DNA from: Escherichia coli
Lineage (GTDB): Bacteria; Pseudomonadota; Gammaproteobacteria; Enterobacterales; Enterobacteriaceae
Assembly: GCF_024502345.1 (NCBI RefSeq)
Contig: NZ_JALDNN010000001.1
Direction: 5' to 3' (one strand)
Length of the DNA: 64,000 bases
This document shows, piece by piece, positions 10,411-20,975 of this stretch. Both the position numbers and the translations under genes were made by a program. Below the pieces are notes generated by a model, which saw only the letters and a list, made by a program, of their open reading frames with translations, was not told the DNA's origin and did not search any database. How positions within the stretch are numbered: position 1 is the first letter of the stretch; every line of letters starts with the position of its first letter.

Positions 10411-10773
10411 ATGTTTCTAAACTATTTCGCGTTGGGAGTGCTGATCTTCGTCTTTCTGGTGATTTTTTATGGAATCATCGCGATACATGACATCCCTTAT
10501 CTGATTGCCAAAAAGCGCAACCATCCCCATGCCGACGCTATTCATACGGCGGGCTGGGTGAGCCTGTTTACTCTGCATGTTATCTGGCCGTTTCTGTGGA
10601 TCTGGGCGACGCTCTATCAACCGGAGCGTGGCTGGGGTATGCAGTCACATGTTGCGTCGCAGGAGAAAGCGACTGACCCGGAAATCGCCGCACTTTCTGA
10701 CCGAATTTCCCGGCTGGAGCACCAACTCGCCGCCGAGAAAAAGACTGACTATTCCACGTTCCCGGAGATCTAA
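10411..10773 (+). CDS. yibI: Small inner-membrane protein YibI (DUF3302)
   Basis: 120 aa with hydrophobic N-terminal segments; about 90 percent identical over the first 78 residues to YiaW in this window; immediately followed by yibH. Confidence 0.85.
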
Positions 10774-10775
10774 TT

Positions 10776-11912
10776 ATGGATCTATTGATTGTTTTAACTT
10801 ATGTGGCGCTGGCGTGGGCGGTCTTTAAAATCTTTCGTATTCCGGTGAATCAGTGGACGCTGGCGACGGCGGCGCTGGGAGGCGTGTTTCTGGTGAGTGG
10901 TTTGATTTTGTTGATGAACTACAACCCCCCTTACACTTTTACCGCGCAAAAGGCTGTGATAGCGATCCCCATCACGCCACAGGTGACGGGAATTGTTACT
11001 GAAGTCACTGACAAGAATAATCAGCTTATTCAAAAGGGCGAGGTGCTTTTTAAGCTCGACCCGGTTCGTTACCAGGCGCGAGTTGACAGACTTCAGGCTG
11101 ACCTGATGACGGCGACGCATAATATAAAGACGCTGCGCGCGCAGCTCACTGAAGCGCAGGCCAACACCACCCAGGTTTCAGCGGAGCGCGACCGTCTGTT
11201 TAAAAATTATCAACGTTATCTGAAAGGCAGCCAGGCGGCGGTGAATCCGTTCTCGGAACGTGACATCGACGATGCGCGGCAAAATTTCCTCGCGCAGGAT
11301 GCGCTGGTGAAAGGCTCGGTGGCGGAGCAGGCGCAGATCCAGAGCCAGCTCGACAGTATGGTTAACGGCGAGCAATCGCAGATTGTGAGCTTAAGAGCGC
11401 AACTTACAGAAGCAAAATATAACCTTGAACAGACCGTCATTCGCGCACCGAGCAATGGCTACGTCACTCAGGTACTGATCCGCCCAGGCACATACGCCGC
11501 TGCCTTGCCGCTGCGTCCGGTGATGGTCTTCATCCCCGAGCAAAAACGGCAAATTGTCGCCCAATTTCGGCAAAACTCGCTGTTACGTCTGAAACCTGGC
11601 GATGATGCGGAAGTGGTGTTTAACGCGCTACCTGGGCAGGTGTTCCACGGCAAACTGACCAGTATTTTACCTGTCGTGCCAGGCGGTTCTTATCAGGCGC
11701 AGGGGGTATTGCAATCATTAACGGTCGTGCCCGGCACGGACGGTGTGCTGGGAACCATTGAACTGGACCCTAACGATGATATCGATGCCTTACCCGACGG
11801 CATTTACGCCCAGGTGGCAGTTTACTCCGACCATTTCAGCCATGTTTCGGTGATGCGAAAAGTGCTGCTAAGAATGACCAGCTGGATGCATTATCTTTAT
11901 TTGGATCATTGA
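10776..11912 (+). CDS. yibH: HlyD-family membrane-fusion-like protein YibH
   Basis: 378 aa, N-terminal TM anchor and coiled-coil region; paralog of YiaV; start 3 nt after yibI stop. Confidence 0.85.
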
Positions 11913-11982
11913 GACTTATATCACCTGTGTTTTGCGTGAGCCTGAGCCATACTGATATTTTTCCTCGCACAAAGGACTCGGC

Positions 11983-12591
11983 ATGAAACTCGTCGGTAGC
12001 TACACCAGCCCGTTTGTACGCAAACTTTCTATTCTGTTGTTAGAAAAGGGCATAACTTTCGAATTTATTAATGAACTGCCCTATAACGCGGACAACGGCG
12101 TGGCGCAATTTAACCCGTTAGGAAAAGTGCCGGTGCTGGTGACCGAAGAGGGCGAATGCTGGTTTGATTCGCCGATCATCGCTGAATATATTGAATTAAT
12201 GAATGTCGCTCCGGCGATGTTGCCGCGCGATCCGCTGGAGTCGTTGCGGGTGCGCAAAATTGAGGCACTGGCGGATGGCATTATGGATGCTGGGCTGGTA
12301 TCGGTGCGTGAACAGGCGCGTCCAGCGGCGCAGCAGTCTGAAGATGAATTGTTACGCCAGCGGGAGAAAATCAACCGCAGTCTGGATGTGCTGGAAGGAT
12401 ATCTGGTCGATGGCACACTCAAAACCGATACGGTCAATCTGGCGACTATCGCTATTGCCTGTGCCGTCGGATATCTCAATTTCCGCCGCGTTGCGCCAGG
12501 TTGGTGTGTCGACCGCCCACACTTAGTCAAACTGGTCGAAAACCTGTTTAGCCGCGAAAGTTTTGCTCGCACCGAACCGCCAAAGGCTTGA
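11983..12591 (+). CDS. yibF: Glutathione S-transferase family protein YibF
   Basis: 202-aa ORF recognised as YibF. Confidence 0.9.
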
Positions 12592-12688
12592 TGCGCGATA
12601 TGTCCTCCTGACCCATCTCACGTTACAATCCGTGGTTATGTTAAACGCCCTTCTCCGTGTGAGAGGGCCTTGATCAGCCAGGTTTCCT

Positions 12689-18965: not shown

Positions 18966-18989
18966 TATAAGAAGCTGGTCGCATTGGGT

Positions 18990-19085
18990 ATTCATTGCCT
19001 GATGCGACGCTTACGCGTCTTATCATGCCTACGGGAACCTGACCGTAGGCCGGATAAGGCGTACACGCCGCATCCGGCATAAACA
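18990..19085. repeat. REP/BIME palindromic elements downstream of aldB
   Basis: gcctgatgcgacgcttacgcgtcttatcatgcctac and gtaggccggataaggcgtacacgccgcatccggc, a typical inverted REP pair. Confidence 0.6.
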
Positions 19086-19509
19086 AAGCGCACGTTGTTA
19101 CAATTTACGTTTTAAACCTACGTGCGCAATAACCCAGACTACGCCAACAGAAGTGCGTTTCTGGGGCGTGTTTTGTCAGGAGTTTAATCTCGCGTTTCGA
19201 TGGTGAGCGGGCGAACCAGGCCGTAAATCACCATTGGTGATCCGAGGCCAATCAGCAATAAACGGTAGATAATTGAAGGTTTAATACGCTTAATCTGTAC
19301 TGTGGATGTTTTACTGGAGTTATTCATTAGTTTGGCCAATAGTTCCACTATTTCAATATGATAAACCTCGTCCTGTTGAAAAACCAGACAGCACATTTCA
19401 GAAAGTATATAAAAAACAATATGTCGTTATATAAATAAGGAAATTGCACTGCATCATGGCATTTCATAATATGCGTTAATTGTTCTTTTTTATATTCTTT
19501 GAGGGAAAT

Positions 19510-19833
19510 ATGTTCCTGGACTATTTTGCACTGGGAGTGCTTATTTTTGTATTTCTGGTGATATTCTATGGGATTATTATTTTACATGATATTCCCTACC
19601 TGATTGCTAAAAAACGTAATCATCCTCATGCCGACGCCATTCATGTTGCTGGTTGGGTGAGTCTTTTTACGCTGCATGTTATCTGGCCATTTTTGTGGAT
19701 TTGGGCCACGCTTTACCGCCCGGAGCGGGGATGGGGAATGCAAAACCATGACTCCTCCGTTGTGCAACTACAACAGCGTATTGCCGGGCTGGAGAAACAG
19801 CTCGCCGACATCAAATCCTCTTCTGCCGAGTAA
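19510..19833 (+). CDS. yiaW: Small inner-membrane protein YiaW (DUF3302), paralog of YibI
   Basis: Begins [21 protein letters not shown], 107 aa; near-identical N-terminal region to YibI. Confidence 0.85.
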
Positions 19834-19838
19834 TACTT

Positions 19839-20975
19839 ATGGATTTACTGATTATTTTGACCTATGTGGCTTTTGCATGGGCAATGTTTAAGATCTTCAA
19901 AATTCCTGTAAATAAATGGACCATTCCCACAGCGGCCCTGGGTGGCATATTTATTGTCAGTGGTTTAATTCTGTTAATGAACTATAACCATCCGTATACC
20001 TTCAAAGCGCAAAAAGCGGTTATTTCTATTCCTGTTGTCCCACAGGTGACAGGTGTGGTGATTGAAGTGACGGATAAGAAAAATACGCTGATTAAAAAAG
20101 GTGAGGTGCTATTTCGACTGGACCCGACGCGTTATCAGGCGCGGGTGGATAGGCTGATGGCGGATATCGTTACCGCAGAACATAAACAGCGGGCGTTGGG
20201 CGCAGAGTTAGATGAGATGGCGGCGAATACTCAGCAGGCAAAGGCCACGCGGGATAAATTCGCTAAAGAGTATCAGCGTTACGCACGCGGCAGCCAGGCG
20301 AAAGTAAACCCGTTTTCAGAACGCGATATTGATGTGGCGCGGCAAAATTATCTGGCGCAGGAAGCCTCCGTAAAGTCATCGGCGGCGGAACAAAAACAGA
20401 TCCAGAGCCAGCTGGATAGCCTGGTGTTGGGTGAACATTCTCAAATCGCCAGCCTGAAAGCGCAGCTCGCGGAAGCAAAATATAACCTTGAGCAGACGAT
20501 AGTGCGTGCGCCGAGCGATGGTTATGTGACCCAGGTGCTGATTCGTCCGGGTACCTATGCCGCGTCGCTGCCGCTACGTCCGGTGATGGTGTTTATACCC
20601 GATCAGAAACGACAAATCGTGGCGCAGTTCCGTCAGAACTCCTTGCTGCGCCTGGCTCCCGGCGATGATGCGGAAGTGGTATTTAACGCTCTGCCAGGCA
20701 AAGTGTTCAGCGGTAAGCTGGCAGCCATTAGTCCAGCTGTTCCCGGCGGAGCTTATCAGTCGACCGGCACCTTACAGACGTTAAACACAGCGCCGGGTTC
20801 AGATGGCGTTATCGCGACCATTGAACTGAATGAGCACACTGATTTGAGCGCTTTACCAGACGGTATTTACGCCCAGGTGGCGGTCTACTCTGATCATTTC
20901 AGCCATGTCTCGGTGATGCGCAAAGTGTTATTACGCATGACCAGCTGGGTGCATTACCTTTATCTCGATCATTAA
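19839..20975 (+). CDS. yiaV: HlyD-family membrane-fusion-like protein YiaV, paralog of YibH
   Basis: 378 aa, collinear with YibH at roughly 75 percent identity by eye. Confidence 0.85.

Follow-up and report, generated by a model that had tools for sequence, protein, structure and literature searches.

A 64,000-nucleotide stretch of Escherichia coli DNA (contig NZ_JALDNN010000001.1 of assembly GCF_024502345.1; hereafter, the window) carries two paralogous gene pairs, yibI-yibH and yiaW-yiaV, each encoding a small DUF3302 protein of the inner membrane followed by a periplasmic adaptor (membrane fusion protein). In a survey of homologous loci, the DUF3302-adaptor pair proves to be an autonomous and strongly constrained unit across Pseudomonadota, sometimes in an operon with an outer-membrane factor. 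By analogy with known tripartite systems, we favour with middling confidence the reading that each pair would form an export module that docks on an outer-membrane factor, with the DUF3302 protein as its membrane partner. The four genes and their family assignments are already in the public annotation of E. coli and are no discovery as such. A full-text literature search found no mechanistic study of yibI, yibH, yiaW or yiaV, and neither the obligate pairing of DUF3302 with an adaptor nor the linkage to an outer-membrane factor appears in the searchable papers. The literature thus agrees with a preliminary description of the window, made from its letters, that called the function of both pairs unknown; the context found here points to an export role linked to an outer-membrane factor.

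The two gene pairs are paralogous over their full length

Overall identity between YibI and YiaW is 74% (E 8e-62) and is higher over the first 78 residues, where 72 are the same. Their tails differ and align with an 8-residue gap, and a heptad-like pattern, L..RI..LE.QLA, is retained in both. YibH and YiaV, of 378 residues each, align without gaps at 290 identical positions (77%). These values bear out the preliminary description, which had proposed near-identity of the small proteins over their first 78 residues with divergence at the C-terminus, and collinear 378-residue adaptors at about 75% identity. The similarity in both cases is far above chance, and it is not limited to low-complexity transmembrane segments, as the complete adaptor and the polar His/Asp-rich loop of the small protein are also alike.

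At the DNA level, homology of 69.5% extends over 1515 nt (10402-11910 versus 19501-20973). It begins 9 nt 5' of the first start codon, taking in the GAGG ribosome-binding site, and ends at the adaptor stop codon; the flanks are unrelated. The genes of each pair are closely spaced, with 2 nt between yibI and yibH (TAA tt ATG) and 5 nt between yiaW and yiaV. Gaps of 3 and 5 nt had been given earlier, of which the second is correct and the first is one nucleotide too long. The full-length paralogy, the same order and tight spacing, and a homology that spans exactly the two genes support the earlier proposal that a two-gene module was duplicated.

The duplication was probably not a recent local event. 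In the Nei-Gojobori counts, the proportions of synonymous (pS) and nonsynonymous (pN) differences are 0.76 and 0.16 for the adaptors, and 0.79 and 0.056 for residues 1-79 of the small proteins. Recent gene conversion between the pairs is ruled out by these pS values of 0.76-0.79 and by a longest shared exact word of 20 nt. As synonymous sites have reached saturation and gene conversion has left no trace, the duplication is old.

YibI and YiaW are small two-helix proteins with a conserved polar loop

YibI matches the Pfam model DUF3302 (PF11742) with an E value of 3.3e-41 over positions 1-76 of 77, and the model is matched by all 25 members of the alignment, YiaW included. By these profile matches, both proteins are full-length DUF3302 members. 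The family is of modest size, with 819 clusters at 50% identity in a search of 1.8 billion representative proteins. Its architecture consists of two hydrophobic helices joined by a 21-residue loop. Nine polar residues (H26, D27, R36, H38, H40, D42, H45, S51 and H56, the last but one and the last located in helix 2) are each retained in at least 93% of 76 unique members, and helix 2 bears an invariant W..WP..W.W signature. Under the positive-inside rule, on which this topology is based, the K34-K35-R36 cluster suggests that the loop is cytoplasmic and that both YibI termini are periplasmic. The search for a solved structure of DUF3302 returned marginal transmembrane-helix matches, such as rhodopsins at E 0.002.

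The C-terminal tail extends 41-96 residues beyond the WP..W.W motif, and its sequence also varies across the family. Tail length does not follow the length of the adaptor hairpin, a relation that would have hinted at a contact between the two (Spearman -0.20, p 0.20, n=44). A relationship of DUF3302 to the small proteins AaeX and YdhI (DUF1656) is ruled out, with an hhalign probability of 0.1 for the DUF3302 alignment against AaeX.

In one metagenome locus (L108:6740-7468), a DUF3302 open reading frame (ORF) reads in frame into the C-terminal motif of the adaptor (..IRRILLRMRSWQNYIFMEGH), with the adaptor body missing. Either a natural deletion-fusion or an artefact of assembly may explain this arrangement. 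A real fusion would fit a DUF3302 tail and an adaptor C-terminus that share one compartment.

YibH and YiaV have the architecture of EmrA-type adaptors

The Pfam domains of YibH are CusB_dom_1, HlyD_D23 and Biotin_lipoyl_2, and the pattern in YiaV is identical. The closest solved sequence is EmrA (phmmer E 2.5e-11). An AlphaFold model of YibH built with a 56-sequence alignment has a mean predicted local distance difference test (pLDDT) value of 84 and supersedes a single-sequence model with a pLDDT of 53. In the model, helices 2-19 and 26-49 are followed by lipoyl strands, a long helical hairpin (97-152/161-218), a β-barrel and a C-terminal helix (355-371), with no space for a membrane-proximal domain. 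The lipoyl (barrel-sandwich) domain is split by the α-helical hairpin and followed by the β-barrel, the arrangement of the HlyD/EmrA-type fold. The N-terminal anchor to the inner membrane is present as the hydrophobic helices 2-19 and 26-49, one more than in EmrA or AaeA.

A Foldseek search with the model ranked the EmrA chains of EmrAB-TolC first (E 7e-22, TM 0.63-0.68), with MacA, AcrA and MexA next; among the 71 PDB matches at E<=0.001, every match listed is an adaptor. Alignment of YibH to AaeA by hhalign gave a probability of 99.6, with the C-terminal helix aligning to the AaeA C-terminus. Together, the domain matches and the modelled fold identify YibH and YiaV as predicted periplasmic adaptors. 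The general RND_mfp model (TIGR01730, cut-off 94.9 bits) scores YibH above its cut-off, at 99.3 bits, and YiaV below it, at 87.9 bits.

Two traits are unusual for adaptors: the second N-terminal hydrophobic helix with a conserved connecting loop, and the conserved C-terminal helix. The connecting loop, K18.F20..P23.N25.W27, is the best-conserved region in distant members (mean top-residue frequency 0.74). It is followed by the C-terminal helix (0.69), in which R361, R366 and W370 are invariant in the 56-sequence alignment. The long hairpin, which by the model would be the part that reaches the outer-membrane channel, is the least conserved region (0.33, with 30% gaps in distant members), and it is about 60 residues shorter in adaptors of about 315 residues. 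A relationship of the N-terminal hairpin to AaeX is ruled out (hhalign probability 0.15). A role in anti-phage defence was also rejected, as the PADLOC matches are to coiled coil and at chance level.

The pair is conserved across Pseudomonadota with no linked pump gene

About 170 loci were surveyed, of which 80 are from Enterobacterales and about 90 from other sources (a metagenome scan and single look-ups), with GC contents of 0.28-0.67. Sequence diversity came from the representative search and the locus scans, as two large protein searches gave close enterobacterial relatives only. The named sources of the distant pairs include Colwelliaceae, Psychromonas and an unclassified metagenome-assembled genome of Pseudomonadota.

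In the 80 Enterobacterales loci, every DUF3302 gene with enough downstream contig is followed by a 378-residue adaptor. Elsewhere the adaptor lies directly 3' of the DUF3302 gene in about 75 of 90 loci, and 11 of the remainder have at most 220 nt of downstream sequence. L108 (the fusion locus), L114 and L118 are the only loci that have room downstream yet lack an intact adaptor. The gap between the two genes is -8 to +10 nt in most loci.

No conserved pump gene of the ATP-binding cassette (ABC), major facilitator superfamily (MFS), resistance-nodulation-division (RND) or AaeB type adjoins the pair in any part of this survey, and YibH and YiaV are not encoded with a cognate inner-membrane transporter. 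Among the recurrent neighbours, a NodT-type outer-membrane factor (efflux lipoprotein; TIGR01845, 213 bits versus a cut-off of 210) is the only one that is functionally coherent; it adjoins the pair on the same strand in five distinct loci. Its gene lies directly upstream of the pair in L089/L090, with a 12-nt gap, and directly downstream of the adaptor in L099, L130, L131 and L161. A reductive-dehalogenase-like cluster, RadD, SulP and an AI-2E transporter, found near the pair in metagenome loci, were rejected as partners because they look like lineage synteny.

A core copy and an accessory copy

The order mtlA-yibIH-yibF-selAB is common to Escherichia, Citrobacter, Enterobacter, Klebsiella, Kluyvera, Leclercia, Lelliottia, Raoultella and Trabulsiella. 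The order aldB-yiaWV-yiaU-yiaT occurs, among the 80 Enterobacterales loci, only in Escherichia, Citrobacter and Pseudocitrobacter. Among complete E. coli genomes, 5406 of 5426 (99.6%) contain yibIH and 3800 (70%) contain yiaWV. In strain FDAARGOS_1373 (L174), the yiaW-V-U-T block is absent and aldB abuts the sgb genes; the entire block (19510-22810) is a presence/absence polymorphism in E. coli. The yibIH pair is thus the core copy, and yiaWV an old, dispensable second copy on a variable segment.

In a rough neighbour-joining tree, the YiaV clade lies outside all YibH-type sequences of Enterobacterales, including those of Serratia, Rahnella and Budvicia. This position would fit an old duplication followed by losses, a horizontal arrival of yiaW-V-U-T, or an accelerated early divergence, and the tree is too rough to choose among them. 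A third DUF3302-adaptor pair is present in Citrobacter sp. NCU1 and Awk 4 (L064 and L065) at another chromosomal site, adjoined by a different LysR-type regulator. It forms a branch of the tree that is separate from the YibH and YiaV clades.

Where present, yibI, yibH, yiaW and yiaV are all under strong purifying selection. Compared with the orthologues of Escherichia whittamii and Citrobacter youngae, the adaptors give omega values of 0.01-0.04 and the DUF3302 domains values of 0-0.04. The comparison with the Citrobacter amalonaticus yiaW orthologue was out of frame and was disregarded. For the DUF3302 tail, omega is 0.15-0.27 in both copies, as measured against E. whittamii, the only comparison with unsaturated synonymous sites. 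The preliminary description had read the divergent C-termini of the small proteins as a sign of subfunctionalisation. That proposal is weakly founded, as the tail is fast-evolving and variable in length family-wide and evolves faster in both copies; its divergence reflects a generally weaker constraint in both copies and is therefore no specific evidence of subfunctionalisation. The different genomic and regulatory surroundings of the two pairs may be a better hint of divergence than the tails.

Synonymous divergence (dS) from E. whittamii is uneven, with values of 1.24 for yibH (L005), 0.59 for yibI and 0.43 for yiaV (L034). One possible cause is that yibH has recombined or had its allele replaced in some lineages of Escherichia.

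The surroundings of the two pairs in the window

The window is a chromosome segment of E. coli type, with a best match to a complete E. coli genome of 98.8% over 11 kb. From ORFs and annotation, the gene order is mtlA(-), yibI, yibH, yibF, selA, selB, yiaY, aldB, yiaW, yiaV, yiaU(-), yiaT. The features of the two pairs and of the genes that follow yiaV are listed in Table 1.

Table 1. Coordinates of the yibI-yibH and yiaW-yiaV genes, their predicted elements and the adjoining context genes in the window
Feature	Position	Strand	Description and basis
yibI	10411-10773	+	120-aa DUF3302 small inner-membrane protein; ORF, Pfam, RefSeq annotation of the best-matching E. coli genome
YibI layout			Predicted hydrophobic helices at about aa 3-25 and 47-69; loop aa 26-46; C-terminal tail aa 70-120; hydropathy and charge analysis
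YibI conserved His/Asp-rich loop	10486-10545	+	H26 D27 .. R36. H38 P39 H40. D42 .. H45
yibH	10776-11912	+	378-aa EmrA/AaeA-like predicted periplasmic adaptor (membrane fusion protein)
YibH N-terminal two-helix membrane hairpin	10779-10922	+	aa 2-19 and 26-49; hydrophobic segments and model helices
YibH long alpha-helical hairpin	11064-11429	+	aa 97-218; model helices 97-152 and 161-218
YibH C-terminal amphipathic helix	11838-11888	+	aa 355-371; invariant R361, R366, W370
yiaW	19510-19833	+	107-aa DUF3302 paralogue of yibI; ATG start
yiaV	19839-20975	+	378-aa adaptor paralogue of yibH; RefSeq annotation
yiaU	20972-21946	-	LysR-type regulator, convergent with yiaV; in the variable yiaW-V-U-T segment; ORF and annotation
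yiaT	22070-22810	+	MipA/OmpV-family outer-membrane protein; context gene; ORF and annotation

The mechanical ORF of yiaW is stretched by a TTG at 19480, and a ribosome-binding site, GAGG, is located 7 nt 5' of the ATG. The mechanical ORF of aldB (17289-18965) likewise begins with a TTG, at 17289, and would encode 558 residues; the annotated AldB starts at 17424 and has 512. The genes yiaV and yiaU converge and share 4 nt at their 3' ends (20972-20975), with no terminator predicted between them. An Rfam scan found no regulatory RNA near yibIH or yiaWV. Scans for promoters and terminators scored no more sites than shuffled sequence did, and nothing is concluded from them.

The AT-rich spacer between aldB and yiaW contains a small ORF on the minus strand (19184-19327) whose C-terminal half is hydrophobic; the annotation of the best-matching E. 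coli genome calls it a hypothetical protein. REP-like palindromes are found in the same interval (19000-19075), and just past yiaT there is an Rfam match to naRNA4, a REP-derived nucleoid-associated RNA (22862-22940, minus strand); the two flank the variable yiaW-V-U-T block. Next to yiaT in the window strain lie a gene for a GH127-family glycoside hydrolase (22940-24934, minus strand) and an ORF of 466 residues (together, region 22940-26321), at a place that the yiaK-sgbE operon occupies in K-12. That operon was not found by blastn anywhere in the 64-kb window, and the yiaT neighbourhood is therefore a hotspot of gene-content variation.

Reported phenotypes

YiaV is listed in TCDB as an uncharacterised membrane-fusion-protein entry, 8.A.1.1.4 (PMC10971958). 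The published phenotypes of these genes are scattered and of an envelope type. In uropathogenic E. coli, yibI is induced in urine, and its deletion cuts fitness in urine (competitive index 0.33) as well as adhesion (PMC5404293). Deletion of yibH in Klebsiella results in fewer plaques by evolved phages (PMC11796411), and deletion of yiaW increases Ca-mediated transformation, according to a report cited in PMC12844161. IS1 insertions at nt 263/324 of yiaW arose in parallel in three of six macrophage-evolved lines and were then followed by insertions in potA or potD (PMC3861542); a yiaW insertion mutant alone shows unchanged phagosome maturation (PMC5495878). YiaU (LpsR) is reported to control the adjacent gene yiaT and the waa genes, and yiaWV is not reported as its target (PMC9068703).

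Proposed mechanism and alternatives

Each pair would be a translationally coupled two-gene operon for a two-helix DUF3302 protein of the inner membrane and an EmrA/AaeA-type adaptor whose own two-helix hairpin serves as its anchor. DUF3302 and the adaptor would most likely join in a single membrane complex. If EmrA and MacA are a guide, the adaptor would oligomerise into a tube whose α-hairpins meet the outer-membrane factor tip to tip, and in E. coli this factor would be TolC. The result would be an export conduit that spans the envelope. We infer the direction of transport and the substrate, as we do the interaction of DUF3302 with the adaptor, the oligomeric state and stoichiometry, the docking on TolC and the topology.

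Because both proteins are most strongly conserved at the membrane and on the side predicted to face the cytoplasm, and no pump is linked, the membrane parts would form the site of entry or coupling. This site would comprise the His/Asp loop of DUF3302 together with two adaptor elements, the KxFxxPxNxW loop and the RxxxxRxxxW helix at the C-terminus. Either DUF3302 itself or a transporter encoded elsewhere would be the partner at work in the inner membrane. In the former case, a new and very small type of energised or gated exporter would be added to the tripartite systems. Such an exporter could also account for the phenotypes in urine fitness, phage plaquing, transformation and adaptation to macrophages.

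Several points weigh against an outer-membrane-factor-docking export module. To our knowledge, all characterised adaptors use a dedicated pump, and a pump-less system is without precedent. The linkage to an outer-membrane factor was found in 5 distinct loci among about 55 metagenome loci, other than E. coli, with flanking genes, and no gene for such a factor lies beside the pair in any of the 80 Enterobacterales loci. The scores of the specific adaptor models are far below their cut-offs: 112 bits versus 390.8 for EmrA/EmrK (TIGR00998), 109-112 versus 376 for MdtN (NF007785), and 62-75 versus 400 for AaeA (NF007850). Deleting these genes has mild effects, and yibH has been chosen as a neutral site for integration (PMC5852967).

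The strongest alternative, possible although less probable than a module with DUF3302 as the membrane partner, is an accessory adaptor unit in which YibH and YiaV serve an unlinked MFS, ABC or AaeB-type pump. DUF3302 would then act as a small modulator or assembly factor, like AcrZ with AcrB, or AaeX and YdhI. The characterised adaptors of the YibH fold all partner a pump, as EmrA does EmrB in the best structural match, and the aaeX-aaeA-aaeB and ydhI-ydhJ-ydhK operons encode small membrane proteins just 5' of related adaptors. Moreover, a CPA1-type cation/proton antiporter on the same strand adjoins the pair or is near it in L096, L159, L131 and L161, although these four loci may come from related lineages. 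However, an adaptor gene normally shares an operon with that of its pump, and no transporter family is consistently linked in the approximately 170 loci. In addition, DUF3302 has no detectable relation to DUF1656, and its conservation and polar His/Asp motif exceed what is expected of a passive accessory.

A bolder form of the export module, which we consider unlikely, is that DUF3302 and the adaptor hairpin constitute the complete inner-membrane component of a minimal, pump-less exporter dependent on TolC or a NodT-type factor. A ring of the small helices would form the entry pore, and the H26 D27 H38 H40 D42 H45 H56 cluster would serve in proton coupling or cation binding. Such an exporter, if real, would represent a new class among tripartite export systems, with cations or polyamines as possible substrates.

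A non-transport device for envelope structure or sensing is less probable still. Here the adaptor, as a periplasm-spanning coiled coil, would tether or monitor the outer membrane or the peptidoglycan, and the His-rich loop would be a metal or pH sensor. The nature of the phenotypes (phage plaquing, adhesion and transformation, not drug resistance), the co-travelling of yiaWV with the MipA-family outer-membrane gene yiaT, and the wide variation of hairpin length among family members are in agreement with such a device. By contrast, the fold and the best matches are all those of export adaptors, and the sole coherent recurrent neighbour is an outer-membrane factor of efflux type. No signalling domain or linked kinase is present, and no control of yiaWV by yiaU is reported. 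Finally, although 30% of complete E. coli genomes lack yiaWV and disruption of yibH is tolerated, gene decay, with one or both pairs as non-functional remnants of a three-gene efflux operon that lost its pump, is effectively excluded by four intact genes under strong purifying selection, by a pump-less two-gene layout kept from Enterobacterales to distant Pseudomonadota across the whole range of GC contents, and by the near-universal presence of yibIH in E. coli.

The DUF3302-adaptor pair is among the few remaining adaptor families of E. coli that have no assigned pump, substrate or partner. The division into a core and an accessory copy provides a natural genetic handle, as 30% of E. coli strains are already without yiaWV.

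Comparison with known export systems

Existing database entries, DUF3302 (PF11742) and TCDB 8.A.1.1.4, cover these proteins, and neither carries a function. The best match to YibH in both sequence and structure is EmrA of the MFS-type system EmrAB-TolC (PDB 8zal/8zar), which shares with it a membrane anchor, a lipoyl domain, a long α-hairpin and a β-barrel, without a membrane-proximal domain. A single transmembrane helix is present in EmrA, whose gene shares an operon with that of its pump EmrB. In YibH and YiaV, by contrast, there are two hydrophobic helices at the N-terminus and a conserved helix at the C-terminus; no pump gene is linked to their genes, and a DUF3302 gene always precedes them.

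MdtN of MdtNOP is the joint top NCBIfam match for YibH and YiaV, at scores far under the cut-off (109-112 bits). No MdtO-type pump gene is found beside yibIH or yiaWV, and the NodT-family outer-membrane factors that adjoin distant DUF3302-adaptor pairs resemble MdtP.

In gene order, the closest parallels are AaeX-AaeA-AaeB and YdhI-YdhJ-YdhK of E. coli, in which a small two-helix membrane protein is likewise encoded directly 5' of the adaptor. AaeA is homologous to YibH, basic C-terminal helix included. The third gene of these operons, for an AaeB-type pump, is absent beside yibIH and yiaWV, and DUF3302 is unrelated to DUF1656 at the profile level. In its working, the module would be most like EmrAB-TolC or AaeXAB; its adaptors have the structure that defines this class but are encoded apart from any pump.

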